Of a DNA stretch of 64,000 bases, positions 3,253 through 43,587 are shown piece after piece. A program made the translations under genes and the position numbers. How positions within the stretch are numbered: position 1 is the stretch's first letter; each line of letters starts with the position of its first letter. The stretch is from a virus (Duplodnaviria; Caudoviricetes), in IMG/VR virus record IMGVR_UViG_3300028048_000077, positions 32,001-96,000 of that record; one strand, given 5' to 3'. A model generated the notes under the pieces. That model saw nothing but the letters and a program-made list of their open reading frames with translations. It made no database searches and was not told the origin of the DNA.

Positions 3253-3992
3253 TTATACCTCCTTTTTATAACCATACACTTCATTATCTTTCTCATCTAA
3301 TATATATGGTGGTCTTGGAACATCTGTACTCATTTGATCAGTAAGAGTAATATATTCTATAGAAGAATAAAGATTTCTAGCATTTACAGAATTACCACCA
3401 TAACAATGACCAATAACAAATGATTTATAATTATCTCCACTTCTAGTACCTAAGTGATTACCATTCATATAGAAATCAAATGTATTATCTACTATATGTA
3501 CACTAAAGTTATTATATTCTCCAGAAGCAGTTCTACCTATATTAATACCATTACTATTAGATTCACATAATGCATTAGAACTATTTACTGATAAAGTATT
3601 AGGATTAGATCCTAAACTAGCAAACACAGGTGCGGGTGTTCTACCATTGCTATAAGGCATAGCTGTAGAATCAGTATATATGTATTCATCTGTAATAGCA
3701 TTAGTTCCTGTAGAATTTATATGTGGCATAAAATAACCAATTTTTTCTCCATCACCACGACCATTATATCTAATTATCTGTATAAAACTATATCTAAAAT
3801 TTACCCATATATCATTACCATTAAACAAAGTATATTTAAATGCTAAAGCATGTATATATAAACCACCATATTGATACATATTAGCTGTATCTACTACCCA
3901 AGGAGAATATTCCAAATATGTTTTAGCAGAGCGGTTAGTTGTCCCCCCCCCCAATCAATTATATCATAATATTCGATTCCTCGTACATTCAT
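3253..3992 (-). CDS. LamG/ConA-lectin-like virion protein, phase-variable, OFF state (G10 tract at 3943-3952)
   Basis: ATG at 3992 (MNVRGIEYYDIIDWGGG) reaches an early TAG with G10; G11 or G8 joins it to the 233-aa downstream frame; C-terminus DEKDNEVYGYKK. Confidence 0.75.
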
Positions 3993-3993
3993 T

Positions 3994-4725
3994 CTATCCC
4001 TTCTTTACACCATACATATTATCATTATTTTCTTTTATCGTCCAACGAATATCATCCATAGGAGTTTGACCTTCAAAATCTTTAGTCCATCTAAGACCTT
4101 TAGAAACTCTATAGTTAAGTATACATACAGATGGCACTGTACCATTCCAATTTGCTTGAATATAAATAGCAAATATTGAATCGCTTCCAATACTACGTGT
4201 ATACTCCAATATCTTTTTACCATCTAGATATACTTTAAACAATGAATTATTTTCAATTGTACAAGCATAATGGTGATAATTTCCATCTTTTAGATTTGTA
4301 TAATATTTTACAAATACTCGATCTCCATTTGCTTGACTCAAATCTATAAAATTATGATAAATATTTAAATTTGAAGTTATATAAGGATCTCTAACATTAT
4401 AATCTTGAGAAGTATCATATGGTGTTTTACCAAATCCAAGTATAAAATTATATGTGGCATTATTACTTCCAAAAGACGGATCTGATCTAAATATACAATC
4501 TATAGTAGAATTTATATTATTATAAATCGTTGATCCTAATGAGAAATTATTCGAATCTAAAACACATGCAGCGTATCTTTGAATATCACTTAAGTAATAA
4601 TAATTAAATCCAATAGAACGTCTCCATGACCCACCCCCACCAACATAATCTGTGTTATTACCATCAAATGGTCAATAAGCCACTGTATTTTCATCTACCA
4701 TCTGAGATATAGTAGGTATCTTCAT
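3994..4725 (-). pseudogene. LamG-like protein with in-frame TGA at the conserved Trp (TVAY*PFDGN)
   Basis: 244-codon frame from ATG 4725 (AGGAG SD) open except TGA at 4674-4672; YHHYACT and VYLDGK LamG motifs; C-terminus ENNDNMYGVKK. Confidence 0.75.
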
Positions 4726-4749
4726 TTATATCAACTCCTGTATTTTAGC

Positions 4750-4784
4750 CTATTAATCTTAAGTCTTCTCGACCTCTGAATAAG
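4750..4784. promoter_or_regulatory. back-to-back late-type promoters (GACT-TAAGAT-TAA on -, GACC-TCTGAA-TAA on +)
   Basis: Matches the RACH-N6-TA motif seen upstream of many structural genes. Confidence 0.55.
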
Positions 4785-4805
4785 AAGAATGCAGGAGGGT
4801 ATATT

Positions 4806-6164
4806 ATGAATATAAAACAAAAGAAAGCTACAATTCATGATTTTCCATTCTTAAATGTAAAAGTAAAAACAGATCCATTTAAAGTAGTTAGAGAACATCG
4901 TTCTCAGATGAAGTCTTCTCTTGTTACTCCATCTAGAAATCATTCATATTCTCTCTGTATAGAATATGTAAAGGAATGGTTTGCATCTGCATTTGTAGAT
5001 GGATTCTTTAAATCTGCATATATAAATGGATCACATGTAATTGATCAATTTAGAAGACTCACTAGAGAACAGCTTCTAAAAAGAAATACTCCTTGCTATA
5101 CTATTACTCCTACCATAGATTATGACTATAATTCTGAAATGGTAGACTTGTATCCATATGGGGGTAATATATTTAATAATAGATATGAATTAGAGTCTTC
5201 CTTCTATAGAAACTTTGAGACTAATGATTTTATAGCATTAGACTTCAAACAGCTATTGATGAAGTTTAATATAAGAATCAAAATGCCTACTCTTGCATCT
5301 GCACAAGATTTATATGACTTCATGCAAATAAAATTTAGAGCAGGTGCTACTATGGGAAGAGAAGTAGATTTAGACTTTCATCTTCCTATGAAATTAATGG
5401 CTCAAGTTGCTAAGGATAATGGATTTGAATTGGATTCTAATTATAATATTAAAGACTCAACAGAATTTCTTAGTCATATGAATAAGAATTCTATACTTCC
5501 TATTATGTATAAGAGAAGAAATGGAACTGGAAATAAAGAGTACTTTGTAAAGCTTCCTAAGATGTATGTACATTTCCGTATCTCAGATATACAAATAGAT
5601 GAAGGAGAAAGACAAGGTCATCTTATGAATAACTTCAATCTACAGTTTGATGTAGATGTACATTTCCCTTGTCCTAAGTTCTTTGTATACTTCTACTTTG
5701 AGACCAAAGAATTTCTTAAGACTTCTCCTGAAGAGAGCGATATTATTAGACTGGAAGACTTCCCTGTACTTAGTATTCCAAAAACTAATGATAAGGGTTG
5801 GAACCAGTTTATTACTACCGAATATATAGATGATGAAGAAAACTTTAATGAAAAAGTTCCATTAACTATTTCATTCATAGAACTCCTAGGGGATCTTAGA
5901 AAAGCGATTGATTATACTAAGAGTATATACTTATCTCCTGGATTATTTATAGATATGAAGCTTTTTAATAATGGTAAAGAGATTCCATTAGAAATAGATT
6001 GGGAGAATTATGAAATAAAGACTAATACAGTTATGACTAATATAAAATCTCATCTAGTTCTATATGTGGATAATAAATATCTGAATGAAACTATAATGAA
6101 ATTACGGGAAGATAAAGAACACCGTATTACTCCATATATGCAAAGTAAAGTTGTAAGAAACTAA
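4806..6164 (+). CDS. putative virion structural protein (jumbo-phage conserved type)
   Basis: 452 aa, GGAGG SD, late-type promoter; no catalytic motif recognised. Confidence 0.55.
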   Translation: MNIKQKKATIHDFPFLNVKVKTDPFKVVREHRSQMKSSLVTPSRNHSYSLCIEYVKEWFASAFVDGFFKSAYINGSHVIDQFRRLTREQLLKRNTPCYTITPTIDYDYNSEMVDLYPYGGNIFNNRYELESSFYRNFETNDFIALDFKQLLMKFNIRIKMPTLASAQDLYDFMQIKFRAGATMGREVDLDFHLPMKLMAQVAKDNGFELDSNYNIKDSTEFLSHMNKNSILPIMYKRRNGTGNKEYFVKLPKMYVHFRISDIQIDEGERQGHLMNNFNLQFDVDVHFPCPKFFVYFYFETKEFLKTSPEESDIIRLEDFPVLSIPKTNDKGWNQFITTEYIDDEENFNEKVPLTISFIELLGDLRKAIDYTKSIYLSPGLFIDMKLFNNGKEIPLEIDWENYEIKTNTVMTNIKSHLVLYVDNKYLNETIMKLREDKEHRITPYMQSKVVRN

Positions 6165-6299
6165 AACTATTCCCTCTGCCCTAATTGGGCAGAGGGAGTT
6201 ATTGTGTTAAACTAAATAATTTTAGAGATACTATAAATATGAATAGGGTATAGGTACCAACTATACCCTATTCAATCTCCTAGAAAGGAGGTGTCAAGA

Positions 6300-6419
6300 A
6301 TGGCTAATTTAATAAAGTCATTCATACGTATTAAATCAATTTGGGATTTAATATCCATAGGCGATATGATAATTCAGATAATTGATTTAATACAATATTT
6401 AATAACCCATTCTTTATAG
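6300..6419 (+). CDS. small hydrophobic peptide A (39 aa), type I toxin-like
   Basis: Early motif 6227-6242, 5' hairpin 6241-6273, AGAAAGGAGG SD; MANLIKSFIRIKSIWDLISIGDMIIQIIDLIQYLITHSL. Confidence 0.65.
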   Translation: MANLIKSFIRIKSIWDLISIGDMIIQIIDLIQYLITHSL

Positions 6420-6560
6420 AAAGGTTATTAAGAATATACTTTATAATTAGTCACTAAAAATTTGATTCTAAAAACCAGAAGTATAACTTCATTATTACAT
6501 AGATGATAATCAAACTGGTAAAAAATAAGTGAAATAACTTTCACTTATTTTTTTTTATAA

Positions 6561-6863
6561 TTATAATACATTTTTAAGATAATCAACTATTCTTAATTCT
6601 TCTTCTTCATTATCAGGAGCTATTATATAACCATTAGCATGCCCACAATTAATAAATGGAATAGTCATATATGGTTCTTTTTCATTTATAGGAACAAAAG
6701 TAACATTGAATGTATACTTTTTACTTGTTCTACTATAAATAAGATCAGTAGTATAATGCAAATACTTACTATCTAATAAATTCTCAAGAACCTTATGTTT
6801 CTTTACCAATTCTATAAATTCATTTTCATATCTTAATTTAATAGCATCAAGATTATAAATCAT
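6561..6863 (-). CDS. hypothetical protein
   Basis: 100 aa, AAGGAG SD. Confidence 0.7.
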   Translation of the reverse strand: MIYNLDAIKLRYENEFIELVKKHKVLENLLDSKYLHYTTDLIYSRTSKKYTFNVTFVPINEKEPYMTIPFINCGHANGYIIAPDNEEEELRIVDYLKNVL

Positions 6864-6941
6864 CTTTTAAACTCCTTAATTACTTCCAGATTGAATTATA
6901 TCCATAATTCTTTTTACAAATTCAACTATATTATTTATCTC

Positions 6942-7166
6942 CTAATAATTTGAATATCCTTTCATACAATAGAACTTTATTCCATCCTCTTCTTTATCAT
7001 TTAAAGAAGGTGAATCCAAATTTGTAAAGAAAGCAAATATAATATTTGGATCTTCTTCATCTGGTTTTATAAGAACACATTGTAGCTTCTCAAATTCGCT
7101 CATAGGATTCTCAGCAGATATTATCTGATCTCCTACTGATGGTAATTCATCTAAAGCGTGAATCAT
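6942..7166 (-). CDS. hypothetical protein
   Basis: 74 aa, GAGG SD. Confidence 0.6.
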   Translation of the reverse strand: MIHALDELPSVGDQIISAENPMSEFEKLQCVLIKPDEEDPNIIFAFFTNLDSPSLNDKEEDGIKFYCMKGYSNY

Positions 7167-7199
7167 AGTTTTACCTCTTTCTCAGACTGTTGTTTCAGG

Positions 7200-7583
7200 C
7201 TAAATATGAGTAGGCATTTCCTGCCAATTCTTCTCTGCCCATTTTCCAACAGTATCTAAAATTCTCTTTTTAGCACTTTCAGTTAATACTACAGTTTCTT
7301 CAGATCCTCGTTTTTCTATAAAATATATATTTTCACAAGAATCCATTACAACTTCTTCATACATCAATATAGGACGAATTACTCCTCTTAAAGATCCATG
7401 AGTAATTTTATATCTTGGTGTATCTATTGGTTTATTACCATGGATAACCGAGGATAATGGATACTCAACTATTTGTGGTTTATACTTTTCAATATTTAGC
7501 ATTATAACTGTATAGCTTAATCCTAATTGAAAATAAACTCTCAAATACTTAACTTTGTTAAAATCCATTATCCTCGCCTCCAA
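7200..7583 (-). CDS. hypothetical protein
   Basis: 127 aa ORF; likely start MDFNK after GAGG. Confidence 0.65.
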   Translation of the reverse strand: MEARIMDFNKVKYLRVYFQLGLSYTVIMLNIEKYKPQIVEYPLSSVIHGNKPIDTPRYKITHGSLRGVIRPILMYEEVVMDSCENIYFIEKRGSEETVVLTESAKKRILDTVGKWAEKNWQEMPTHI

Positions 7584-7586
7584 TTA

Positions 7587-7817
7587 TTAAGCTTGAGATA
7601 AGATAGCCTCTATCTCAGCTTTGTCCTCATCGGTATAAGCATCTCTGCTTAATCCCAATAAATCATTACTAGTAATCAGAATATCCTTATACAGGTTTAC
7701 CTGACTATTTAAAAGTCCGTCATTAGCAGAAATAATCATGCTATTATGAGGATTAAATGTTTCCATTGCCCTTTCAGCAAATTCCTGGTTAGTGATATAC
7801 ATTACATTTAAGCAATC
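7587..7817 (-). CDS. RNA polymerase beta' N-terminal subunit, exon 3 (DCLNVMYITNQ...)
   Basis: GAT after the intron terminal G supplies the last Asp of NADFDG^D. Confidence 0.9.
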   Translation of the reverse strand, partial: DCLNVMYITNQEFAERAMETFNPHNSMIISANDGLLNSQVNLYKDILITSNDLLGLSRDAYTDEDKAEIEAILSQA

Positions 7818-8202
7818 CTGAAATCTTCACATATGATACCTTATACATATGCAGTTCTCTTATGAACTTCTCTAGGAGTTCCCTAGAAGCAGAGACTATA
7901 TCTTCATCTCAGAGAGATGCTCCTCCACAGAACTATCGGTTGATAGCTGCTTAGTCGTTGAACGTTCCTTCCATTACCCCATTATCTTTATGAGAAATAT
8001 CTAAGGAAGGCTTCGCTGCTGATTCCCCATTGTAATAGACCTTAGCACCTATATAATATATAGGCTTTTATTTCAGCATAGTCCATCTCTTCACTTGTTT
8101 CTATCTTTCGATTCCTATTTCTAGGCAGAAGAGCTTTAGTAAGTCCCAGCAATTCAAAGGAGTGCATCCACTATGTCACCATAGTAGAGGGCATGATTAC
8201 AT
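7818..8202 (-). mobile_element. group I intron 2 (385 nt, ORF-less) within the NADFDG^D motif
   Basis: Exon ends GGU; P1 GGU|AUG pairs with CAUGCC giving a U-G at the splice site; P10 GUAAUC/GAUUGC; core elements AAUUGCUGGGA, AAUCAGCAGC, GUUCAACGACUA, AAGAUAUAGUC; terminal G. Confidence 0.92.
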
Positions 8203-8316
8203 ACCATCAAAATCTGCGTTCAAACCTGGTAAGACTTGTAGTGGCATAGACATTGTAAATGTGTCATTTATTCCTATACATCTCATACAAAGTATAGAAC
8301 CATACTGTATACTTGG
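8203..8316 (-). CDS. RNA polymerase beta' N-terminal subunit, exon 2 (38 codons, PSIQYGS...GLNADFDG)
   Basis: Manual translation gives the catalytic NADFDG motif in frame between the two introns. Confidence 0.92.
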
Positions 8317-9376
8317 CTTATTTCTTCACATAGTTTAGTTTATCACTATGCAGTTCTCTTATGAACTTCTCTGAGTATTACTCAGAAGGTGAGAGTACAT
8401 CATTATCCTAGAAGATGAGGATATCCAGTGCTGTCCTTCACTTGAAGGCGCATACTCGTTGAATTATTAAAACTTATCCCAAATAACATCTATTTAAATA
8501 ATAAATAGAAATGGGGTATTCAATTATGGCTCTTAGTAAAGTTAAATGTGAACATCCAACTCAAGAACATATGCAAACTGCTAATTATAGATATAGGAAA
8601 AATCTTATCAATAATTTTGGAATGTATCATATTGATGAACAATGGCTTCCTATTATATTAGCTGATATTCAACCTTGGTATTACGTAAGTAATTATGGAA
8701 GAATATATTCTAAATTATATGATTGTATTATTAGAGATAGATTAGTAGGTCATGGTTATAAAATTGTGACCTTACGTACTATATATAATACACCAATAGA
8801 TTGTTTAATTCATCGTATTGAAATGATAACTTTTAATCCTATTCCTAATTATAAGGATATGCAAGTTAATCATATAGATGGAAATAAACTAAATAATCGT
8901 TTATATAATTTAGAATGGTGTACATGTCTTGAAAACATACATCATGCTATCATTAATAATATTTATAATAATATTGGTGAGAATAATGTATGTGCAGTAT
9001 TTACAAATGAACAAGTTCATATAATTTGTAAATGCTTAGAAATGAATTATTCATTTAAAGCCATATGTGATACTTTAAATATTGAATACAATGATAAAAC
9101 TATTTCCAGAATTAATCAAATAAAACGTCATAAAAACTGGAAACAAATTTCATCTCAATATAAGTTTTAACAACTGCTGATTTTCGATTGTTTATAGACC
9201 TTAGCACCTATATATCTCTATATAGGCTTTTATTTCAGCATAGTCCATCTCTTCACTTGTTTCTGACTTTCGTCTCCATTAAGGCAGAAGAGCTTTACGA
9301 GGTCCCAGCAATTCTCTGGATAGTTTTAAGCACAGCATTATTTTATATCTTCTTCTGCTATACCGAACCCAAGTTA
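8317..9376 (-). mobile_element. group I intron 1 (1060 nt) at NRN^PSI, carrying an antisense HNH endonuclease
   Basis: Exon ends AAU; guide ACUUGG-GUUC pairs with GAAU and CCAAGU; core nearly identical to intron 2; P7 GAGUA/UACUC; terminal G at 8317. Confidence 0.9.
8511..9170 (+). CDS. NUMOD4-HNH homing endonuclease (I-HmuI-like), antisense inside intron 1
   Basis: YYVSNYGRI, GYKIVTL, IHR and VNHIDGNKLNNRLYNLEWCT motifs; likely start 8526; AACA-N6-TA at 8485-8496. Confidence 0.9.
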   Translation: MGYSIMALSKVKCEHPTQEHMQTANYRYRKNLINNFGMYHIDEQWLPIILADIQPWYYVSNYGRIYSKLYDCIIRDRLVGHGYKIVTLRTIYNTPIDCLIHRIEMITFNPIPNYKDMQVNHIDGNKLNNRLYNLEWCTCLENIHHAIINNIYNNIGENNVCAVFTNEQVHIICKCLEMNYSFKAICDTLNIEYNDKTISRINQIKRHKNWKQISSQYKF

Positions 9377-10585
9377 ATTCCTGTTTACTAACATTTTTAT
9401 ACCACCAGTATAATCTATCAAATTTTGTATGATTTGTCTTACCATATCATTTGGGAACAATTGAGCTTTATACCATATACTATATGCCTTAGAATACGTA
9501 CAGTTATATGTATGCTTAAGTATATTTACAATAGTCTGTTGTAATAACTCTACTAAAGCATGATATGGTAATTTAATCTCATCAATTCTCAGATTTAAAT
9601 CTGGAACGATAATACTTCTATTGGTAAATGAGCATTTACCTCCGATAAGAAGTCTAATGTTTCCTTTCTTTTGTGCAAGAGTCTTTTCTATCTCTGTATA
9701 AAGAGCATTATATCTATCTTGTAAATCCCACAGCAATGTAGAACGATACTTGAATATATTATACATTGAAAGCTCGTCCTGATTTATTTTTCCTGCTAAC
9801 TTTGCCATGATATTAAAGATAGCATTTGTTCCTTCAAATGTGAATACTCCATTCTCTACTTTGAATGGTCTCATTCCTGTAGAGAATACTGGAATAGCAC
9901 CAGTAAAGATATTCTCTTTATTTTCAATAATCATTTCATATTGATCAATCTTCTTAGTACCATTCTTCTTATGGAAGTACTCTAATATTTCATCGAAATT
10001 CTCTTTAAACTGCAGCATTCCAATTCCAGCATATGTCTTATCTGAATTAGAATGTTTAGTGAACTTCTTTTTATTAGCCATTTTCTTCTTAAATGCTTTT
10101 TTCTCCCAAGAAGTCATCTTAGTACCATTAGTATTCAATTCTACATCTGGTTCTATGATTGCTTGGAGATTATCATTCCCGAAGTATGACTGTATAACTT
10201 TAAATAGATTTGGATGAATAATCTTATATGGCTCTTTTAATTTAATCCATCCAAATATCTCAAAATTATCTCCAATAAACTTGACCTCAGTATGGCAATA
10301 TGGACATATCAATCCTTTCTTATTAATACCTTGCCAAGTTTTACATTCACAAGAAAACTTATCTGCAAATGCATTATCATCTTGCAATGTTTTCATAAAT
10401 CTTTCGGAATAGATAGAGTCTGGAGACTTAAGAGATTTCTTTAATGCTTGTGGCTCTTTAATCAGGAATCCCATTCCTGTAATCAAGTCATTTTGCATCT
10501 CTTTCTCAAGATTCATTCTTACAAGACGAGTTCTGTATTCATATTCATCAGAATACGGATATTGTACTCGTGTATTTACTTGCAT
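9377..10585 (-). CDS. RNA polymerase beta' N-terminal subunit (probably non-virion RNAP), exon 1
   Basis: Zn finger CEC...CPYC, GWIKL, KKGNIRLLIGGKCSFTNRSIIVP (cf. GKRVDYSGRSVI), ends LVNRN; start MQVNT after AAGGAGG; early motif at 10642-10659; spliced product ~517 aa. Confidence 0.9.
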
Positions 10586-10790
10586 AAAAAATATCCTCCT
10601 TTTATTTAATTTTGACTCATTCGAGTGGCCTCCTAATCCACTCATATATATATAGTATATATTTAATTGATATTTTGATCCCGTACCTATATGGTACGGG
10701 ACCATTATCTTATCAAATAATTGTTAAGAAAAAAATATTATTTAAAAAAAGACCCACCATCATATGATGGTGGGGTATGCAGGGGTATAA

Positions 10791-11036: not shown

Positions 11037-11038
11037 CT

Positions 11039-12808
11039 TTATTCATCTATAAAGTTTACAGTCAAAACAGAGTCTGGAATACGATCTGCGTAATTATAAC
11101 TACCAGTTAGAACACTTTTAAACGTATTATAATCAGTAAATACTGATCTTCTTACATTATTAAATACTAATGAAGATTCCTCACCTAATACAACATCTCC
11201 AAATAAAGTTCTAATTGAAGAATCCTGATATATACTAAATAAATCAAAATTTAATTTTACTTTAGTTAATGATCTACAACCAGAAAACATTACATACATT
11301 CTATTTACATTTCTTGTATTCCAATTAGAAAGATCTATTTCAGTTAAAGATGTGCATTTATAAAACATATAATCCATAGTTCTTACTTTACTAGTATCCC
11401 AGTTAGATACATCCACAGTAGTTAATGATGAACAGGAGGCAAATACACCATACATAGTTTTTACTTTACTAGTATCCCAATTAGATACATCTACAGTAGT
11501 TAATGATGAACAGTAATTAAATATCTGTTTCATATTTGTGACATTACTTACATCCCAGTTAGATACATCTATATCAGTTAATGATAAACAGTGATCAAAT
11601 GCGAATTCAAAACTAGTAATTGGAGAAGTATCCCAGTTAGAACTATCTATAGAAATTAGATTGCTACAATATGAAAGCATCATATCTGCATTAATAAAAG
11701 TAGTTGTATTATTTAATATTCTTTGAATATCATCATTATATGATTGATCTAATTCAGTTATATTCTTATAATTCGGAATATTTTCATATGCATAATCCTT
11801 TAGATTATTTGAAATTCTATCTTCTAATGGCCTAATATATCCATTTATATATACTTTAATCAGATCAACTATATTCATATTACCATTTATATCTTTATTT
11901 GTTTTTACCGCTTTATCAAGTGTACCATTTAAATCTAAAATTAATTTTGATTTAGTACTTATACTTCCAGTAATATCAGATATACATTTTGCAAAATGCA
12001 CAAAATTTTCCCCATTAATATCTTTTGTTATTTTACGTCCTATATTAACAGTTCCATTTAAATAACTATCAGGAGCTTTTAATACTACTAATAATTTATT
12101 ATTACATATAATATCAATATTATGCTTAGTTGGATAAAATAATCTTAAAGATACTATACAGTTATGTTTAGTAAGGAACCCATCTGGATATAAAGTATTT
12201 ATACATTCTTCTTTAGAAGTTTTTATACATGCAGAATCTATAATCATTCCATTAATATCATTTCCAATAGCATTTTTAATCTTGATAATTTCCTCAGGAA
12301 GATAGTTAAGATAGTTTAATGGAGCATCAGATGGATGTAATCCATGATCACTATTTAGCAATGTAGATAAATTATTAAAATTATATGGTCTACCATTTAA
12401 ATCTGAATAATATACAGCATTTCTATCAGTGTAATTTGAATACAAATCTGTTTTGCTTGAAGTATATACTCTAACAGCGGATCCTATAAGTTTAAATCCT
12501 TTATAATTATTATAGCTATCATTATGAATCATATAATAAAATACTTTGTCCATAGCGTCAAAGTATGAATATTCATTAGTACCAGGATTATAATTTTTCA
12601 CATGTGAATATACACAAAGTATATATTTTAATGGTTTATTTAAAGAGTATGGGTATACATTATTATCTACTTTTTCAAGTGTATATTGAACAAATATTTT
12701 TGGATTGAAAGAACTATTAGAATTTAGTGGTACGCTTAAAGGCGTACCACTCCCTTCATTTATAGTTCCAGAGCCCTGAAGAATAATTTCTCTACCATTA
12801 ATTTGCAT
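11039..12808 (-). CDS. virion-associated protein with BspA/DUF285-type 26-residue leucine-rich repeats
   Basis: C-terminal repeats MFxxCSSLTTVDVSNWDTSKV; N-terminal domain paralogous to 14909..15892. Confidence 0.8.
   Translation of the reverse strand: MQINGREIILQGSGTINEGSGTPLSVPLNSNSSFNPKIFVQYTLEKVDNNVYPYSLNKPLKYILCVYSHVKNYNPGTNEYSYFDAMDKVFYYMIHNDSYNNYKGFKLIGSAVRVYTSSKTDLYSNYTDRNAVYYSDLNGRPYNFNNLSTLLNSDHGLHPSDAPLNYLNYLPEEIIKIKNAIGNDINGMIIDSACIKTSKEECINTLYPDGFLTKHNCIVSLRLFYPTKHNIDIICNNKLLVVLKAPDSYLNGTVNIGRKITKDINGENFVHFAKCISDITGSISTKSKLILDLNGTLDKAVKTNKDINGNMNIVDLIKVYINGYIRPLEDRISNNLKDYAYENIPNYKNITELDQSYNDDIQRILNNTTTFINADMMLSYCSNLISIDSSNWDTSPITSFEFAFDHCLSLTDIDVSNWDVSNVTNMKQIFNYCSSLTTVDVSNWDTSKVKTMYGVFASCSSLTTVDVSNWDTSKVRTMDYMFYKCTSLTEIDLSNWNTRNVNRMYVMFSGCRSLTKVKLNFDLFSIYQDSSIRTLFGDVVLGEESSLVFNNVRRSVFTDYNTFKSVLTGSYNYADRIPDSVLTVNFIDE
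11270..11690 (-). repeat. 78-bp tandem coding repeats (about 5 units)
   Basis: Recurrent tcccagttagatacatc...cagtagttaatgatgaaca at 78-nt spacing. Confidence 0.8.
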
Positions 12809-12831
12809 ATTACTGGACTCCTTCCTTTATT

Positions 12832-18900: not shown

Positions 18901-20689
18901 TAGTTGCATTTACATAATCTATTATATATCTTTTAGGATCTATAAATACCTCGCCCATTGTAATAAAGAAACTATTTCCATGAATAGTATAATATTTAAA
19001 TGGCTCTGGTATTTTAAATGTAGCTTGTCCATCACTAGATGCAACCACATAATCTTGATAGAATTTAGTTTGTTGATTATCACTATATACATATATTATA
19101 TTAACTTTTCTATCAGTCAAATCTATATTAGAGCTTATAGTAAGTTTATTAGTAGTACTATCCACACTATACATAGATGGATGTAAAATTAGTGTATTTA
19201 CAGATACTATAATATCATTTCCATCATTAAGATAATCTTCATATGGAAGATCTAAATCATATTCATATACAACTGGAGAAGAGTCTTCAAAGTATTGATT
19301 ATGAATTTTAATTGGATCACTAGTATCTGGATTATATTCATTATCTACGGTATTTTTATCATAATAGAATTCAAATCTAATAGTATGAGTAGATTTAGTA
19401 TTGTCTAAATCAACTTGTGCAAATTCTAATTTATCGTAATCATATATAAAATAGTTTTCTGGTAACTGTTTAATATCATCTATCCATATATACATTTTAT
19501 TTCCTTTATTAAGGAAATATAAAAATGGCCATGGTATTTCTATATTATCAAAATCAGTTATATCAGTTAAAGTTCTAGTTGTTCTCTTTAAGATAGTATT
19601 CTCTATTGAATCGATTAAATCTGTTGTTGTATATATTGGATTTCCAAAAGCATCATATTTTCTATTTCTCATTAAAAGATATTTATTAATCTCTACATCA
19701 GTAGCTTGGAAATACATAATAAGATTAAGCATATCTCTAGGAGAAGATTTATACTGAACTAAAGCATTTATATTCTTTACAAGTATAATCTGATACTTTA
19801 GTGGAATTGAATCATAGTATGGTACTCCATACATATCAAATATAAATTTACAGCATCTATTATCAAGTATATCTTTCTTAACTATTCTATCCTGTAATTC
19901 TACTACACAATCATTAATAGTAAGGAAAAGAATATACATACAAAGAAAAGCATTGTAGTGCTCAGAATTAAATTCCATAGCATCTGAATCTACAGCTCTA
20001 TCTACAAACATACGAGAAACTTCAAACTTATCATGAAATAAATCATCTATTTCTACTACTCCACAAGATTTAGAATAAAGAATCTGTTTATCTACTGCTC
20101 GTCTTGCTTTATATATATCTATACCAGCAGTAATGAAGTTTAAGTATTTTGCTTCTGGGTAATCTTGTCTGATTGCATCAAGAGCACCATACTTTTCAAA
20201 CATTCTTGCTCCATCACAACCAAGTTCATGAACATATACTGCATCCACAGTTTCATTTTCAGGAATTAAATACATATATGGAGCAACTGGTATTCCGATA
20301 TCTCCATAAGGAGGAAGACCAGTAATCATTCGATAATAGTTATTCTTTTCTTCATAATTATCTATGATATTTTTTCTTGCAACTTCTACAAGAGCTTCTT
20401 GATACTCTTCTGGTACATCTCTTATATTTGCTAGATAAATATCTATATATGCACTTGGTACACCCGCTTCTACCATCATTTCTTCGGTGTAATCATACAT
20501 AGTAAATGTACCACTACCATCCTTCGAATAAATAAACTTTTCAGCAGCAGCAGATGACTCATCGGTTTCATTAGCCAAAGCAACTGATTCGTCTTTTAGT
20601 ATACAACTATAGGCTATCTGTTGTACATAGTATATCAAGTTATCCAGAAATGGATTGTCAGTATACTTTTTCGTAATATCAAGAGCCAT
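15986..20689 (-). CDS. large baseplate-wedge-like virion protein with internal beta-domain repeats
   Basis: 1567 aa; YEEKNNYYRMITGLP N-terminus; repeated P(F)xxYxxxGN domains; D-I-N/T-G repeats at the C-terminus; late-type promoter. Confidence 0.55.
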   Translation of the reverse strand: MALDITKKYTDNPFLDNLIYYVQQIAYSCILKDESVALANETDESSAAAEKFIYSKDGSGTFTMYDYTEEMMVEAGVPSAYIDIYLANIRDVPEEYQEALVEVARKNIIDNYEEKNNYYRMITGLPPYGDIGIPVAPYMYLIPENETVDAVYVHELGCDGARMFEKYGALDAIRQDYPEAKYLNFITAGIDIYKARRAVDKQILYSKSCGVVEIDDLFHDKFEVSRMFVDRAVDSDAMEFNSEHYNAFLCMYILFLTINDCVVELQDRIVKKDILDNRCCKFIFDMYGVPYYDSIPLKYQIILVKNINALVQYKSSPRDMLNLIMYFQATDVEINKYLLMRNRKYDAFGNPIYTTTDLIDSIENTILKRTTRTLTDITDFDNIEIPWPFLYFLNKGNKMYIWIDDIKQLPENYFIYDYDKLEFAQVDLDNTKSTHTIRFEFYYDKNTVDNEYNPDTSDPIKIHNQYFEDSSPVVYEYDLDLPYEDYLNDGNDIIVSVNTLILHPSMYSVDSTTNKLTISSNIDLTDRKVNIIYVYSDNQQTKFYQDYVVASSDGQATFKIPEPFKYYTIHGNSFFITMGEVFIDPKRYIIDYVNATITFKNPSMIVEGRSIIFHFVYSKNSIYEEIDLHHTSETITATTQYQVEFTIHPPISNYDARGFKVYVELLDWYLDDSYYQVYGNKLVLTNLNMGLEIGDTITFHYYYTDTENNVNTIYKYYNATTKFQSEFIIDFPDTYYFEKGNKIIVDSAGIPLELGVDYTLNGNKVTILDPDYRPYLKQKLCVEYIYIEEVENSIKIFQSTEIVKHDNPIRVWMDVPFYPYQETGHDVLAFTHTLYVPEIYRSITDYSPYMEISDNIAAIGENITFLYFCNKRYWFEKENLITVKEVTKTIDDVQNNILEVPQPFNNFIINDWPWFIDNNKVWMNEESYDLVNDSIAFIDDNTAQELQSFTFTFLYKNCAPWIFIDATGGTEGNEDLENDFNLYFLRIPFSTFTNLSTIVKKQEHVKSYDTFAIGDKFWLGPDGSNKTSNSRYYDVKRAILKKKFNYARTKYLTVDYLMDVSEASFQLAYFYSMLWDDVFKENKLNVRVSTLSNYHEFNIGHLFCYMTSLMYVFQNMEDKIFVKPSEILYARGFNFHADLGALKQWILDQRRRPEDYDVFGFMNPDPEFVDIDQFVETFNTNKNIYNTICDGLINANTYDIWCIWKKLHDSLMIWEFNLEYFKLSDGTQATTFTEFLDEKDPILHDLIVSIASIEDDNSKRDTIIQNIQDIIYILDEWIDSDEFAYIYDQFPGASQRYLLEYLFTMINFFKSYKVYLYQMTINMKFNNPNDPELYIRPNDVHTMLISLDKLDYVSPREVQTMQVTTSYTDSIAPRDIFTLKYVYEPGPIYDTITGHTVVYNGKFTTDINGRVEIAEANIYYWNNNPISKNMANEIIGTIGIKEDRPVMYDMTGVISIKEEAPSIDINGAFNILMDVNADITGNISIPTKVNADMTGDVIVSVDTIYGNDLVIIDTNTYFINGIGSNDMGNDIDGSITVLAPVSMNINGYIDIPDTCYVPNINGNIDIV

Positions 20690-34146: not shown

Positions 34147-34184
34147 AAAGAAAAGGGAGCCTTAAGATAGGCTCCCTTTTTCTT

Positions 34185-34481: not shown

Positions 34482-34585
34482 GCTGGGCTATGGAATACCC
34501 TTTCTTTTATTATCATATGTATAGTATATGTTTATTTTTTTTTATTTTTACAAAAACTTAAATGTAGTTATATGGAGGTGGAGAA

Positions 34586-36473: not shown

Positions 36474-36498
36474 TTTATTATCAAAGGAGACTTTTATC

Positions 36499-36978: not shown

Positions 36979-37003
36979 GAATCCTTAAAGGAGGAAGCAA
37001 TTA

Positions 37004-37423: not shown

Positions 37424-37506
37424 TAATTTCTCCCTCTACCGAAAGGTAGAGGGAGTTATTGTATACCAGTTCGACATTTCGATAATCATATAAAGGAGGA
37501 AGAGAT

Positions 37507-40500
37507 ATGGCTGTATTCTTAGATAATCTTAAATATATGAGATTATATAGAACTCAAATATATTTACCAGTAAAAATGGAATCTAGAAAAACTGGTAGTT
37601 TGATTTTCTTGCTTTCTAATAATCCAAATACTGCTTCATTATTGATGAATCATCCTAAAACTATTAACATCAATAGCTTTATAAGTTATTATGTAGAGAA
37701 GAATGTAAATCTCTATCTTAATGAAAGTACTAAGTATTGGGGATTAGAAGAGTCTATTTCTGCCAAAGAAAGAAGAGAAATTCCAGCGGATCAATTTGGT
37801 CTTCCAGAGGAAAGAAAGTATCCTTTGGATACTCCAGAACATGTTCGTTCTGCTATTAAACTCTTCGGTCATTGTGAAGAAGATAAGAAACATCAGCTTG
37901 CAGTTCGTATTATGAAAGCTGCTAAGAAATTTAATATAGAAATTAAAGAGGATACTGAGGTTTATAAGTATGCTCATATGAAATCTATTAAAGAAGAGAT
38001 GTTAGAGGAAGAAGTAAATTATGAATATAATTCTCCTTCTTTGATAACTCCAAATACAGGTAGTATTACTGAACAGTATATGACCTACAATGTAGATAAT
38101 CATACTTATAGAACTTTCTTTGATGAAGATATTGATTCTTTATTAGAAACTACAGATATGAAACTTAGAAAGATTTTATATGCTGGTAGAATCAAGAATA
38201 ATAAAGAACAGCTTCTTATCTATGATAAGATTAAAGGTATGCATCCTAATATCAAATATACTTATCTTACTTTGGATAAGTATAAAGCTAAGAATCTGTT
38301 TGTAGATACTTCTCATTATTTGAGTGATTTTGCTAATAAGAATACATATAAACTTGATATAGGATTAAATCTGTATGCTAAACTCTTATCTAAATTATTC
38401 AATGATAATAGATATATGCAGAATGGATATACTAAATTTACAATATTCGTTGATGTAGATGAAGTATATAAAGATGATGCTACATCTTATGATTTTAGAA
38501 AAGATATCAATATCTTATCTTTGATTAATAGATACTTAATTCTTAGAAAAGATTTGAAGTCTGTATTGCCACATGATATTGTATTCTTCTCTAAGAATGC
38601 ATATTTTAAAGTAAACGTAGCTGATCTTGATAAGACTAACCTTATTAAGTTCAAAATGTTTATAAAGAAGCTAAAAACTAATGATATCGATGACTCAGAG
38701 TACACAAATAAGGACTCTCAGGAAGTGCTTGTGACGAAATTTGCCGATAAGCTCGAAAAGAGGGGTATTTCCCTTGATAATCTCTCTAAAACGGAAAAAT
38801 TCGCAAATTGGTCAATTAAAAATATAGTTAACCCAGGAATGCATATTGATACTGATTCTAAGAAAAAAGAATTAGTAGAAAAAATTCATACTGCTGCTGA
38901 GAAGTCTTCTACTGAAGAAGAACTTGAAAAGAATATCGAAGATCAGAATACTGAAGATGAAGTAATGGATATCATTCAGGATCTTGAATCAGAAGATAGT
39001 GGAGTCAATGTATCAAAAGCAAGAGCTACTCGTATGAGTACTTTGAATCAGAAATTCAGAGGAAAGAAGTTCAATGGTAAAACCATTGCTGAATATCTGA
39101 ATACTGAGCAGAAAGATATTCCTAAGGATAATATTCCAATTGATAGTATCAATGAAGATTGGAAGGAAGTTCATTTTAGTAAGTTCAATGAAACTTATGA
39201 TTTGGATAATGATATTATCTCTATCTTCAATTCTATGACAGATAAGTCTGCTCCAATTGCAATATTGGATATAGATAAAGAAGATAAAGTAACATCTGAG
39301 GATTATCTTGAAACTTGGACTGTTAAGTTTGAAGATGTAGATGGTAAACGTCATACTATTAAACTTGATGTTCCTAAGTTCATTGATAATAGATTTATGA
39401 TGCTTAGAGGTAACTATAAGACTATTCAGGGTCAGCTTATGCTTCTTCCAGTAATTAAAACTGGTCCAGATACTTCTCAGATTGTATCTAACTATAATAA
39501 GATATTTATTCGTAGATATAACCCATCTAATGGTAGTAAAACTACTAGAAAGATGAGTATTCTTACTAAGATACTTGATAAGTATGATGGTAAAACTTTT
39601 AAAGTATCTATTGGTGATAATGATCTTATTTGTCAGAAGTATGAATTACCTATCGAATATCAAGATTTAGCTACATCATATTCAAGAATTGAGTTTAATG
39701 ATGGAAGCTTTATTTCATTTAATCTTGATGAGATGTATGAATTAAGAGATAAGACCAAATCGAGCTTTTCTATAGTAAGTAGTATTCCATTATATTATAA
39801 TGCTAAACTTAAGAAAGTTAGATCTGTTGATATGCATATAGCTCCAAATATCTTAAATATCTTAGAAGATCATGCAAGATCAAATGTTGATAAAGAATTA
39901 TTAGAGCTTATTGCAAATACTAAACCTTCTCAAAAGCTTTCTTATACTACAGCTAGTATTTTGAATACTGAGATTCCAGTAATTGTAGTTATGGCATTCT
40001 CTGAAGGATTGCAGAAATCTATGGAGAAAGCTCATATCACATATAAATTCAGTGAAACTAGACCACCAAAAGAAGATAAACGTCCATATATTAAATTCAA
40101 AGATGGATATCTCCAGTATGATGATACAGTAGATGCTTCTATTCTTATGAATGGATTACAATATGTAGATACTGGATTCTATTCTATTAAAGATATAAAT
40201 GAGAAAGATATGTGGATAGATGCATTGGATAACTTCGGTGGTAGAATTAAAGCAGATGGTTTGGATAACTTCTATGATCTTATGATTGATCCTATTACTA
40301 AAGAAATTTGTGAGTTATATAAACTTCCTACAGACTATGTATCTATACTTGCATATGCATCTGCATTATTAGTAGATACTAAGTATAATAAACATACTGA
40401 TATTACTGGTAATAGATATAGAACTAAGGAACTCATTGCAGGATATGTTTATAAAACTCTTGCTACTTCTTATGGTATTTATCAATCTACTAGAAAGAAG

Positions 40501-42108
40501 AATAAGAAATCATCTGAGTTTTCTATCAAACAATCTGCTGTAGTAGATGCTATACTAAAGGATCCAACTGCTAGTGATCTTAGTATTCTGAATCCATTAC
40601 TTGAGATTGAGGCTACAAATGCAGTTTCATTTAAGGGATTATCTGGTATGAACTCTGAACGAAGCTACTCACTTGATAAGCGTATTTATGATGAGAGTAT
40701 GCTTGGAGTTATTGGAACTTCTACAGGTTTTTCTGGTAATGTAGGTATTACTAGACAGGCTACTGTAGATTCTAGTATTGCTAATACTAGAGGATTCATT
40801 AAACAGAATAAGGGGGATAAACTTAATACTCTTAATATGCTTACTGCTACTGAGGCTATGACTCCATTCATGACTACTCATGATGATGCAATGCGTATAG
40901 CAATGGGTTATATTCAGACTTCTAAACATCAGATGAGAACTAAGAGATCTTCTCCTAACTTGGTTACTACTGGTATGGATGAAGCTATTCCATATATGAC
41001 TTCTAATTTCTTCTCATATAAATTTAGAGGAAAGAAAGGAAAAGTAATCTCTGTATCAGATAAGTTCATAGTATATGAAGATACTGAGACTAAAGAAAGA
41101 GGATTCGTAGATCTGGAAGAAAAGACTATGAAGAACTCTGATGGTGGTTTCTATGTAACTCTTAGACTTAAGCCAAATGTTAAGAAAGGTCAGATTCTTA
41201 ATAATAATGATATCTTAGCATATGATCCAACTTGTTATTCTAAACAGGTTGGAAATGAAGAAGGTAATGGAGTTTCTTATAATGTAGGAACTATGGCTAA
41301 GATTGCTATTATGACTACAGATGAAGCATTCAATGATTCTACTGTAATTACTAATACATTATCTGAATCCATGAGCTCTGATTATTGTGTAGAGAAAGCT
41401 AGATATCTTCCTAAGGATACAAATATCTATCATCTTGTACAAAAGGGAATGGAAATTCAAGAGGGTGAACCTCTTATGATATTCCAGAATGCATTTGAAG
41501 AGAAAGATGCTAATACATTATTAAATTCTATTACAGATGCAGATGTAGAAGCTGTAAGTGATCTTGGACGTATTCATGTTCGTAGTAAGCTTACTGGTGT
41601 AGTACAAGATATTAAAATATTCCGTACTTGTGAATTAGATGAACTTTCTCCTTCTTTAAGAAAACTCGTAACTACATATGAGAATAGAATTAAGAAAGAG
41701 AAGGCTGAACTTAAGAAAATGGGAGTACAGAATGTAGAAGGATTACTTGATCCAGACTACAAATTAGAGGCTCAGGGTAAACTTAAGGATTGTTTAGATG
41801 GAGTAAAGATATTTGTTTATATTAAGTGCCATGATAGTATGGGCGTAGGAGATAAACTTGTATTCTCAACAGCACTTAAAGGTGTAATCAAAACTGTTAT
41901 TCCAGAAGGACAAGAACCATATACAGACTTTAGACCTAATGAAAAAGTAGAAGCATTACTTACTACAGCAGGTGTAAATGCTCGAATGGTTGGTAGTATA
42001 ATTCTTAATGGTTTGATTAATAAGATTCTTATAGAAACTGATAGAAAGTGTAAAGAGAATCTTGGAATCAAATGGAAGAATCTATATGAAATAGAAGAGA
42101 ATCAATAA
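37507..42108 (+). CDS. RNA polymerase beta subunit (likely virion RNAP) with ~600 aa N-terminal extension
   Basis: LDVPKFIDNRFMMLRG..QGQL, NPLLEIE..SFKGLSG, HDDAMRIAMG, AFNDS, GDKL...KGVI, GVNARM; late-type promoter at 37473. Confidence 0.9.
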   Translation: MAVFLDNLKYMRLYRTQIYLPVKMESRKTGSLIFLLSNNPNTASLLMNHPKTININSFISYYVEKNVNLYLNESTKYWGLEESISAKERREIPADQFGLPEERKYPLDTPEHVRSAIKLFGHCEEDKKHQLAVRIMKAAKKFNIEIKEDTEVYKYAHMKSIKEEMLEEEVNYEYNSPSLITPNTGSITEQYMTYNVDNHTYRTFFDEDIDSLLETTDMKLRKILYAGRIKNNKEQLLIYDKIKGMHPNIKYTYLTLDKYKAKNLFVDTSHYLSDFANKNTYKLDIGLNLYAKLLSKLFNDNRYMQNGYTKFTIFVDVDEVYKDDATSYDFRKDINILSLINRYLILRKDLKSVLPHDIVFFSKNAYFKVNVADLDKTNLIKFKMFIKKLKTNDIDDSEYTNKDSQEVLVTKFADKLEKRGISLDNLSKTEKFANWSIKNIVNPGMHIDTDSKKKELVEKIHTAAEKSSTEEELEKNIEDQNTEDEVMDIIQDLESEDSGVNVSKARATRMSTLNQKFRGKKFNGKTIAEYLNTEQKDIPKDNIPIDSINEDWKEVHFSKFNETYDLDNDIISIFNSMTDKSAPIAILDIDKEDKVTSEDYLETWTVKFEDVDGKRHTIKLDVPKFIDNRFMMLRGNYKTIQGQLMLLPVIKTGPDTSQIVSNYNKIFIRRYNPSNGSKTTRKMSILTKILDKYDGKTFKVSIGDNDLICQKYELPIEYQDLATSYSRIEFNDGSFISFNLDEMYELRDKTKSSFSIVSSIPLYYNAKLKKVRSVDMHIAPNILNILEDHARSNVDKELLELIANTKPSQKLSYTTASILNTEIPVIVVMAFSEGLQKSMEKAHITYKFSETRPPKEDKRPYIKFKDGYLQYDDTVDASILMNGLQYVDTGFYSIKDINEKDMWIDALDNFGGRIKADGLDNFYDLMIDPITKEICELYKLPTDYVSILAYASALLVDTKYNKHTDITGNRYRTKELIAGYVYKTLATSYGIYQSTRKKNKKSSEFSIKQSAVVDAILKDPTASDLSILNPLLEIEATNAVSFKGLSGMNSERSYSLDKRIYDESMLGVIGTSTGFSGNVGITRQATVDSSIANTRGFIKQNKGDKLNTLNMLTATEAMTPFMTTHDDAMRIAMGYIQTSKHQMRTKRSSPNLVTTGMDEAIPYMTSNFFSYKFRGKKGKVISVSDKFIVYEDTETKERGFVDLEEKTMKNSDGGFYVTLRLKPNVKKGQILNNNDILAYDPTCYSKQVGNEEGNGVSYNVGTMAKIAIMTTDEAFNDSTVITNTLSESMSSDYCVEKARYLPKDTNIYHLVQKGMEIQEGEPLMIFQNAFEEKDANTLLNSITDADVEAVSDLGRIHVRSKLTGVVQDIKIFRTCELDELSPSLRKLVTTYENRIKKEKAELKKMGVQNVEGLLDPDYKLEAQGKLKDCLDGVKIFVYIKCHDSMGVGDKLVFSTALKGVIKTVIPEGQEPYTDFRPNEKVEALLTTAGVNARMVGSIILNGLINKILIETDRKCKENLGIKWKNLYEIEENQ

Positions 42109-42145
42109 AACTTTCCCCTACCCTTAATTGGGTAGGGGATATTTC

Positions 42146-42815
42146 TTATTTTATTCCATATAATTCATTATCACTTTCTAAAGTAATTCCTGGTCCTAAT
42201 TCATTCATAAATAATTTAGTATTATCTACTGTAAAATTTCCATCTATTAAACATTCATCTGCAAAGAATATATCTCCAACTGTATAATTGAAATTAAAAT
42301 CTCCAGCATTTCCATATAACCATCCATGAATCATCATTATATTATAAATATTATTTGAATTATTATATGAATATAAAAAATTTCCATCCAAATACCATTT
42401 ATATATATTATTATTACAAGTTACAGTTATATTATATATAATATTTGTTTTTATAGAAATATTAGTATTATAATGCAAATCACCAATATTTCCACTCCAA
42501 CCCCATATATACATAATACCATTATATATTCTTATTGCAAGTGTTCCATAATCAGAAAATTGTATCCAAAGTGTATCAACATATTGACCTACTCTATCTA
42601 CTAAAAATTTATAATTTAGTGTAAAATTAGTTACATTTCTGATATTAATATATTTATACGTTCCATCATTAAAATTATCTTTAGCTTTATAATATAAACC
42701 GTCTATATTTGAATTAAGAGGTTTAATATCATCATAGGGTTCGCTAAATTTTATGTAATCTCCCCCCCCCGATTACTACTTTTCCATTATTAACGAATAC
42801 TCTATCAAAAGTCAT
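42146..42815 (-). CDS. LamG/ConA-lectin-like virion protein, phase-variable, OFF state (G9 tract at 42762-42770)
   Basis: ATG at 42815 after AGGAGG (MTFDRVFVNNGKVVIGGG) stops 6 codons after G9; G8 or G11 gives a continuous ~222 aa frame; WYLDG; C-terminus LESDNELYGIK. Confidence 0.8.
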
Positions 42816-42885
42816 AATATATTCCTCCTATTATACTAATTACTTATTTGTAGCAAAAAAAAACAAAAGAGTAAGTAGAATAGGG

Positions 42886-43587
42886 GTGAATAATATGATA
42901 AATAGAAGTATTATAGAATTATGTTTAAGACGTAATTCGGGGGGGGGGTACTATAATGTAGTGAATAATACAAGTTATTCATTCGTTAATGGTTCAAGCT
43001 TACCATACCCTTCTGACTATAAAATTCGTCCAGAATGTACAATAGATTTAAGAAGTGGAGAAACTGGAATAAATTTAAATAGTTATAAAATAAATAATAA
43101 AACTATATGTTTTTGGATAAAGGATACAAGTACGTATAGTGGAAATGGTGGAGTAATATTTAGCAATTTTAATTTAATGATTAAAAATAATACATTATAT
43201 ATTTTAAATGCTCCAGCATCTGGAACAGTTACATTATGCAGTCATGATTTTACTAAATGGACTTTTGTTGAAATATATGCAATAAATAATGGTAGTAGTT
43301 CTGTAAAAAATATTACATTATTTATAAATGGAACAAAAATAGGAACTTTTACTATTTATTATAATAATACATGGGATTATTATGGTGAAAGTATAAAATA
43401 TATTGGGTATTTTAGTTTAGGGAGCAATAAATTTAATTTTAATGGAATATTATCAGATGTATGTATAATTAATGGAAGATATCATACTGATGGTTATAAA
43501 ATTCCAAGTTATTATTTAAATCATTCATTATATGATAATATAAAATTTTATTTATTATATGAATCAAATGATAATATATATGGGTAA
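42886..43587 (+). CDS. LamG/ConA-lectin-like virion protein, phase-variable, ON state (G10 tract at 42939-42948)
   Basis: TICFWIK, WTFVEI, LFING, FNGILSDVCI LamG motifs; C-terminus YESNDNIYG; AACA-N6-TA at 42863. Confidence 0.8.
   Translation: MNNMINRSIIELCLRRNSGGGYYNVVNNTSYSFVNGSSLPYPSDYKIRPECTIDLRSGETGINLNSYKINNKTICFWIKDTSTYSGNGGVIFSNFNLMIKNNTLYILNAPASGTVTLCSHDFTKWTFVEIYAINNGSSSVKNITLFINGTKIGTFTIYYNNTWDYYGESIKYIGYFSLGSNKFNFNGILSDVCIINGRYHTDGYKIPSYYLNHSLYDNIKFYLLYESNDNIYG

Follow-up and report, generated by a model that had tools for sequence, protein, structure and literature searches.

Hypermutable poly-G tracts were reportedly found by Sorensen and co-workers in 2021 in Campylobacter Fletchervirus phages, where runs of about 9-11 G are said to lie near the 5' ends of several genes, including receptor-binding ones, and to give ON and OFF subpopulations within one stock. 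To our knowledge, experimental poly-G contingency switching in phages has been limited to these Campylobacter phages and, recently, to short runs in T-even phages. Here, a comparable set of G runs is described in a family of genes for proteins with a laminin G (LamG)/concanavalin A (ConA)-like fold. Four of these genes, A to D, lie in a window of 64,000 nucleotides (nt) that spans bases 32001-96000 of the 128,771-bp IMG/VR viral contig IMGVR_UViG_3300028048_000077 (CheckV completeness 52%, 30% GC). The family is similar to the Fletchervirus genes in having 9-11 G near the 5' ends of several genes in an AT-rich genome. Unlike Fletchervirus, which is a T4-like group of Eucampyvirinae, the phage here is an AR9/PBS1-like jumbo phage with its own RNA polymerases. 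The proteins are also unrelated, as tblastn of family members E1, B and D against 50,697 cultured-phage records gave no match, and the analogy is therefore one of mechanism only. Furthermore, the targets here all belong to a single family of LamG paralogs that share a C-terminal tail, known from sequence alone, and two of the switches precede the start codon.

In T2 and T4, short homopolymers within genes cause reversible frameshifts that serve bet-hedging (Gomez, Barrick, Waters, bioRxiv 10.1101/2025.10.21.683753). Those loci are mostly runs of at least 6 across all gene classes and are under-represented in tail-fibre genes, whereas the long G runs described here occur in a single gene family only, a distribution far from random. 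The arrangement is also similar to the contingency loci of bacteria, such as the surface-structure genes of Campylobacter jejuni, Neisseria and Haemophilus, where poly-G occurs in the 5' coding region or in expression signals, multiple independent loci give combinatorial "phasotypes" and interruption of the tract gives locked variants (PMC3025981, PMC5084427). In contrast to the bacterial loci, the tracts here occur in a lytic-type jumbo phage and are replicated by phage machinery, and their targets are soluble stand-alone lectin-fold proteins and not glycosyltransferases or outer-membrane proteins.

A precedent for docking of interchangeable modules is known from Chimalliviridae such as Goslar and PhiKZ. 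Their "fibre cloud" paralogs with DUF7941 have a docking module in common, and this bears diverse carbohydrate-binding, hydrolase or leucine-rich-repeat domains for host recognition (bioRxiv 10.64898/2026.04.21.720040). The virion location was shown for DUF7941, whereas the present family is read from its sequence. Pfam scans of the family members gave no DUF7941 match; the shared element here is a C-terminal motif of ~12 residues and not a domain, and no phase variation has been reported for DUF7941. The family is similar in fold and size (~215-260 amino acids, aa) to the stand-alone LamG/ConA-like proteins (PF13385) of tailed phages, which are common in Uroviricota including the jumbo phages RSL2, PhiEaH1, Psa21 and CBB, although the identity to them is only ~10-18%. 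We know of no YG tail or poly-G switch among other stand-alone proteins of this kind. Full-text literature searches returned no report of poly-G phase variation for jumbo phages or for LamG families.

The G runs and the LamG-like gene family

We consider it likely that this AR9/PBS1-like jumbo phage carries a nine-member LamG/ConA-like family of which seven members are under simple-sequence contingency switches. Expression of these genes probably alternates at random between ON and OFF, and a switch at the DNA level is well supported. The members and G tracts found in the window are given below.

3253..3992, minus strand: gene A, A-like subfamily, ATG at 3992; OFF as assembled
3943..3952, minus strand: poly-G tract of gene A, G10, codons 14-17
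3994..4725, minus strand: gene B, B-like subfamily, 243 codons; directly upstream of A
42146..42815, minus strand: gene C, own type, ATG at 42815; OFF as assembled
42762..42770, minus strand: poly-G tract of gene C, G9, codons 16-18
42816..42894, no strand: C/D intergenic region, 79 nt, with both ribosome sites and presumably both promoters
42895..43587, plus strand: gene D, own type, 230 aa from ATG at 42895; in frame, ON
42939..42948, plus strand: poly-G tract of gene D, G10, codons 15-18 (S-G-G-G)

The following members and tracts lie outside the window and are given in contig positions.

1-266: Bp, B-like, partial
117-127: G11
273-925: E1, own type
803-811: G9
2070-2078: G9
2086-2742: E2, own type
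2754-3461: E3, B-like
3487-3497: G11
3505-4272: E4, A-like

An earlier sequence-only reading of the window had described a family of four genes. Genes A to D were indeed found to be related, but the true size of the family in the 128.8-kb contig is nine, comprising eight full genes and one partial gene (Bp) that is cut by the contig end; the profile search found none elsewhere in the contig. The G runs that had been reported in genes A, C and D were recovered at the positions listed above, and they had rightly been taken as the sole long G/C homopolymers of the window, which contains no further G/C run of 7 or more. In the window, G8 gave 8 overlapping matches against 0.08 expected from shuffles. 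The whole contig contains just seven G/C runs of 6 or more, and every one of them is 9-11 long. The search for runs of G8 or longer that had been proposed for the rest of the genome added four tracts outside the window, all at family gene starts. Thus, all seven tracts (7/7) are found at the start of a member of the paralogous family. When the start region was defined as -25 to +170 nt around each start, the probability of all seven tracts falling within the start regions of the nine family genes was ~9e-14. Five tracts are intragenic at codons 14-53 (A, C, D, E1 and Bp), and two lie 8-16 nt before the ATG (E2 and E4). The G run encodes N-terminal glycines in the five genes with intragenic tracts, whereas the other two tracts precede start codons. 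A slippage-prone repeat of G9-G11 is thereby located in the 5' coding region or in expression signals, as in the bacterial contingency loci. GGG makes up only 4.6% of the Gly codons of the phage, and hence the runs of GGG codons strongly oppose its codon bias; among the Gly-Gly-Gly tripeptides in called genes, 1/9 is all-G.

The two tracts that precede start codons belong to a conserved duplicated element, CCCC(C)GAGTAATCGGGG(G)n-TAATTGA-ATG, found before E2 and E4 (contig 2055-2085 and 3470-3504). The tract before the ATG of these genes would tune expression and not the frame. This element lies outside the window, 28-30 kb upstream, and forms a perfect hairpin whose 3' arm runs into the G9/G11 tract, the tract being the sole Shine-Dalgarno-like sequence there.

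Reading frames and tract lengths in public assemblies

The ON and OFF states of the genes with intragenic tracts were determined from an in-silico series of tract lengths, with the following results.

Gene A: observed at G10, OFF; ON at G8 and G11 (245/246 aa)
Gene C: observed at G9, OFF; ON at G8 and G11 (222/223 aa)
Gene D: observed at G10, ON; ON at G7, G10 and G13
E1: observed at G9, OFF; ON at G7, G10 and G13
Bp: observed at G11, OFF; ON at G7, G10 and G13

These states agreed with the earlier description of A (G10) and C (G9) as out of frame and D (G10) as in frame, and with its proposal of a 1-nt repair, since each OFF gene is one G longer or shorter than an ON state. In gene A, the pre-tract frame ends after 32 codons at 3894-3896 and the post-tract frame of 233 codons reaches the TAA at 3253-3255. 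Similarly, gene C at G9 stops after 23 codons and is followed by a 208-codon open frame. The change in tract length toggles a truncated product to full length in an otherwise intact gene, as is characteristic of contingency loci. The upstream ATGs are the real starts because the pre-tract peptides, MN-x-x-G-I-E-Y-Y-D-x-I-D-F/W in A-like and M-K/R-I/L-P-T-x-S-Q-M-V-D-E-N-T in B-like genes, are conserved across paralogs and phages.

The same observations bear on the decay of redundant paralogs, by which the frameshifts would be ordinary inactivating mutations in dispensable duplicates with no adaptive switch. Decay would agree with the OFF state of 4/5 intragenic tracts in the contig, with a nonsense codon in gene B and with the dispensability of the family, which is absent from the 91% complete relative G001. 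Against this, the OFF genes each retain an unbroken downstream frame of at least 200 codons and are intact apart from the tract frameshift, whereas stops in a random frame occur at 7.4% per codon and the chance of a 208-codon open frame is ~1e-7. In addition, ON alleles of the same genes occur elsewhere, the pre-tract peptides have been conserved, and the tract is kept at the same codon position across paralogs of only 25-42% identity. Decay is therefore regarded as the most improbable of the accounts considered here.

Gene B had been read as intact, and this was not sustained, as an in-frame TGA was found at 4672-4674 (minus strand), codon 18, where relatives have W, Y or F. Apart from codon 18 (* versus W), gene B equals the Logan product P0119. 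The TGA may be a nonsense polymorphism, with the true TGG allele in P0119, or the difference may come from a code-4 gene call on the P0119 contig. A general code in which TGA is read as sense was weighed for gene B and dismissed. TGA, although rare, does act as a stop in this phage and ends 6/114 genes, Trp has 273 TGG codons, and under table 11 ORFs (open reading frames) of ~1,500 codons stay open. The interrupted Gly tract GGTGGGGGTGGG reported for gene B was confirmed at 4630-4641 (minus strand) and, being interrupted, would not slip easily; we regard it as a "locked" form. Some other paralogs are also locked, with the tract broken by synonymous GGT/GGC/GGA codons, as in E3 where the Gly stretch reads GGT-GGC-GGA. 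The occurrence of locked paralogs beside pure-G ones fits the expectation for evolving contingency loci. The stop of B and the ATG of A are 1 nt apart in co-directional genes, and the suggestion that A shares the promoter of B draws its support from this arrangement. When 7-mers were compared upstream of 136 ORFs, no enrichment pointed to a clear promoter class for the family, and the late-type promoters of the earlier reading are therefore putative.

The tract lengths were then compared among public assemblies, where variant lengths were inferred by in-silico reproduction of the exact gene products, the evidence being assemblies and gene calls. The Logan product P0124 (223 aa, on a 13.6-kb contig) is exactly gene C only with G11, against G9 here. 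Similarly, the product P0122 of a 118,410-bp ENA/Logan contig was reproduced from E1 only with G11, against G9 here. The orthologue of A in ENA, P0129, reads ...IIDWGGGTTNRSAK... in frame and is ON, as predicted for G11, and an orthologue of gene C, P0115 (55% identity), is also ON. The B-like gene of a relative is whole in an ENA contig (P0113, 232 aa), whereas in a JGI contig the same gene is broken exactly at the Gly run, giving P0112 (35 aa) and P0007 (205 aa), the latter being 100% identical to P0113 over 203 aa; the tract in this gene, located where that of gene B is interrupted, therefore seems still to slip. Gene D gave an identical 230-aa product in JGI, ENA and Logan, and gene A was OFF in the JGI and ENA assemblies alike. 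Thus, tract-length polymorphism between otherwise identical genes was found at the level of assemblies, and the proposal that the G runs act as length-variable switches was supported by the differing tract lengths and ON/OFF states among public assemblies of the same genes.

It was expected that relatives would carry such runs, and this was borne out in one relative and not in the other. G002 (IMGVR_UViG_3300028048_000102; 95.6 kb, 29% GC), which has genes in common with the clade, contains two A-like genes with G10 at the codon position of the gene A tract (D-F-x-G-G-G), at 8988-8997 and 19519-19528, and a tract-less B-like gene adjoins its A-like genes. One A-like gene of G002 is ON at G10 (238 aa, P0136), and the same gene is elsewhere annotated as beginning at the tract (P0127, first residues VGGGENI...) or at an internal Met (P0135 and, on a 56.7-kb contig, P0134). 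A C9 run (8906-8914) was also noticed in G002, 29 nt upstream of the ATG of an A-like gene with an in-frame G10, and the run may provide this gene with a further switch in its promoter or leader. In the nearest large relative, G001 (IMGVR_UViG_3300045594_000116; 229.5 kb, 91% complete, RNA polymerase 52% identical), no G8 runs and no family members were found, and unrelated small genes occupy the syntenic site after the RNA polymerase gene. The family is therefore accessory, lineage-specific cargo and not a trait of the whole clade. IMG/VR protein searches with D and A as queries gave no close relatives, and pattern searches for the hairpin plus G and for a degenerate A-like N-terminus plus G8 gave nothing beyond G002. 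The sole return of a metagenome scan, L020, is a high-GC actinobacterial contig and was rejected as spurious.

Because all the evidence of variation comes from assembled contigs and gene calls, a homopolymer artefact was considered, in which the true lengths would be fixed and in frame and the OFF states and the differences would be sequencing or assembly errors. The two differences documented in this phage are both G9 versus G11, which could be a habit of the pipelines. We find this account improbable. The calls are reproducible where the assemblies agree, A being OFF in two independent assemblies and D being ON in three, and E1 is OFF at both G9 and G11, a pattern that errors leading away from the ON length would not account for. 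Both states were met repeatedly, in at least four genes and in three phage lineages, and the runs of 9-11 G have been kept despite the 4.6% preference for GGG. In bacterial contingency loci, G runs of this length are known hot spots of slippage, and hence some length variation would be expected anyway.

Recoding at the RNA level was also weighed, by which slippage of RNA polymerase or ribosomal frameshifting would yield some full-length protein from every copy and the DNA length would tune its level. Homopolymer runs can cause transcriptional slippage, and the phage uses its own non-canonical multisubunit RNA polymerases, which favours such a reading. The length differences were seen directly at the DNA level in C and E1, and this makes recoding an improbable substitute for the DNA-level switch, although the two are compatible.

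Fold, C-terminal tail and possible role of the proteins

The family proteins are stand-alone and ~220-250 aa long. The description of their bodies as LamG-like was supported as a LamG/ConA-like jelly roll by Pfam, ESM Atlas and Foldseek. Laminin_G_3 (PF13385) matched 8/21 members at E<=0.01, the best E being 6.7e-10. Against the gathering threshold of 27.6 bits, E1 scored above (33.9) and D (24.1) and B (18.7) below, and the Pfam scan gave no Laminin_G_3 match for A and C. The ESM Atlas model of D has a predicted template modelling score (pTM) of 0.78, and its ten nearest ESM Atlas clusters are all LamG/ConA-like, mostly viral and of 220-260 aa (score 0.98, template modelling score, TM, 0.68). 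The AlphaFold2 model of B (P0119) has a predicted local distance difference test score (pLDDT) of 62 and a pTM of 0.66, and shows a beta-sandwich of 14 core strands with a two-strand C-terminal hairpin; the AlphaFold2 model of D (pLDDT 48) was too poor for use. When the B model was searched with Foldseek, ConA-like jelly rolls were at the top in both PDB and BFVD (probability 1.0, TM 0.4-0.53). At the level of fold only, the model resembles the lectin-like N-subdomain of the clostridial neurotoxin binding domain, domain 4 of AbnA and the lectin domain of calreticulin, and also viral LamG proteins, some of them from jumbo phages. A profile search of PDB sequences gave weak matches to neurexin LNS domains (E 0.002). 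The Gly tract lies within a low-confidence loop of the B model (residues 21-40), and the proteins should therefore accept either 3 or 4 Gly there.

The LamG core ends near ...R-V-S-K-G-L-R-W-T-x-D-F, and the last ~30 residues, outside the core, form the tail, which includes a low-confidence beta-hairpin at residues 231-238 of the B model. The shared motif E-x-D/N-D/N-x-h-Y-G occupies ~12 residues inside this ~30-residue extension. Conservation of the tail, which had been claimed for four genes, was found to extend to 21 members, with Y in 21/21 and G in 90%, and the mean pairwise identity among them was 0.36 in the tail versus 0.20 in the body. The tails of the window genes are located as follows.

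3256..3300, minus strand: C-terminal tail of A, ...LDEKDNEVYGYKKEV
3997-4040: equivalent tail of B
42149-42185: equivalent tail of C
43549-43584: equivalent tail of D

The last codons of gene A (Y-K-K-E-V, AAAAAGGAGGTA; window 3249-3270, minus strand) also provide the following gene (ATG at 3251) with its ribosome-binding site, and the last codons of gene B (V-K-K-G) likewise serve as the ribosome-binding site of gene A. The K-K-E/G that follows YG may therefore be partly constrained at the RNA level. E4 retains KKE with no downstream gene, which makes the RNA-level constraint an incomplete account. In a further product, P0065 (JGI, 1,023-bp contig), half of a carboxylesterase ("para-nitrobenzyl esterase"), the C-terminal one, is fused to the last ~75 A-like residues including the YG tail. 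Either a genuine swap of domains onto the tail has taken place or the assembly is a chimera.

In the mechanism that we propose, DNA polymerase would slip at the G runs during phage replication, and each burst would be a mixture of virions expressing different subsets of the lectin-like proteins, which would provide bet-hedging. Through the conserved C-terminal hairpin, the interchangeable modules may dock to a shared partner that could be part of the virion, and the docked modules would bind varying host glycans. No obvious hydrophobic signal-peptide stretch was seen by eye at the N-termini, and this, together with the carbohydrate-binding type of fold and the conserved tail, fits interchangeable modules that dock on one partner.

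The strongest form of this idea is a combinatorial "lectin wardrobe", in which at least seven independent poly-G switches (five by frameshift and two at the ribosome site) would select among nine LamG modules that plug through the YG hairpin into one virion docking site, giving up to ~128 particle types per burst. We hold it to be a tentative and rather doubtful extension of the switch itself. The competing possibility, about equally doubtful, is that the switch is real but controls proteins with no receptor-binding part in the virion. Such proteins would work within the infected cell or once it has lysed, with counter-defence, takeover of the host and glycan binding in the lysate as examples, and the tail would have some other common function. 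The genes lie in accessory islands beside RNA polymerase and sigma-like genes and not in tail modules, and non-structural genes, T2 agt for one, are known among the contingency loci of phages (bioRxiv 10.1101/2025.10.21.683753), both of which favour a role away from the virion. An intracellular role is a serious rival because no tail-gene neighbourhood could be recognised and no homologue was found in the cultured-phage records. Conversely, with no obvious signal peptide, a lectin-like fold would be most useful on the released particle. The nearest viral folds include annotated structural or tail-fibre proteins, namely the "structural protein" of Pectobacterium phage CBB, the "virion structural protein" of S-PM2 and a "putative tail fiber" of a Pantoea phage, a similarity that is at the fold level only (TM ~0.45-0.5). 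Furthermore, in Chimalliviridae whole families of carbohydrate-binding paralogs are anchored to the baseplate by a module that they have in common (bioRxiv 10.64898/2026.04.21.720040).

Several points weigh against random switching of virion-borne lectin modules. The length differences between assemblies could partly be homopolymer sequencing or assembly errors, and the JGI, ENA and Logan assemblies may not derive from different samples. The TGA of gene B indicates that some copies may merely be decaying. The AlphaFold2 models are of low to moderate confidence (pLDDT 48 and 62), and at that level no residues of a ligand-binding site were assignable. The flanking genes encode RNA polymerase subunits, a sigma-like factor and unknowns, with no recognisable tail or baseplate genes among them, and the absence of a homologue from the 50,697 cultured-phage records bears on the functional half of the proposal.

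Genomic setting and significance

The earlier assignment of the phage to the phiKZ/AR9-like group was upheld by its split multisubunit RNA polymerase genes. PHROG matches to split beta and beta' subunits in the contig place this uncultivated phage, as far as its genes indicate, with the phiKZ/AR9/PBS1-like jumbo phages. The nearest cultured relatives of its 1,533-aa RNA polymerase subunit (~31% identity) are jumbo phages of Firmicutes, namely Staphylococcus S6, PALS_2 and MarsHill, Listeria LPJP1 and Bacillus PBS1. Two neighbouring products were also observed. A 589-aa protein (window 11039-12808, minus strand) with DUF285/BspA-type leucine-rich repeats (Pfam E 6e-37) resembles an adhesin and sits among the RNA polymerase subunit genes. 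A 395-aa protein (window 43854-45041, minus strand), adjoining the C/D pair, has a weak match to an RNA polymerase sigma factor (phrog_351, E 2.8e-10).

The C/D pair is bordered by the following features.

42109..42145, no strand: G+C-rich hairpin, CCCCTACCC...GGGTAGGGG, between the RNA polymerase gene and the end of gene C; terminator-like
43597-43630: comparable hairpin after gene D

With hairpins of the form CCCTACCC...GGGTAGGG on both sides, the divergent C/D pair is therefore a self-contained cassette. Hairpins of the form CCCTACCC-loop-GGGTAGGG or CCCTCTACC-loop-GGTAGAGGG flank the family cassettes and occur also at contig ~960-990, and they may be a reused terminator module. An A9 run is present at 42855-42863 in the middle of the C/D intergenic region, where slippage could shift the promoter spacing.

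These findings widen the range of poly-G switching to an uncultivated jumbo phage of gut or rumen type from the AR9/PBS1 lineage, and to an entire family of lectin-fold paralogs whose natural ON and OFF alleles can already be found in public data. Annotators routinely truncate or split such genes. The conserved YG tail provides a concrete candidate docking motif, and the "lectin wardrobe", if true, would be the first contingency-locus system of host recognition in AR9/PBS1/phiKZ-like jumbo phages. If the proteins are virion-borne, the recognition of host or glycan would be a property of the phage population and not a fixed trait, which would affect host prediction from metagenomes, gene calling and the use of such phages.

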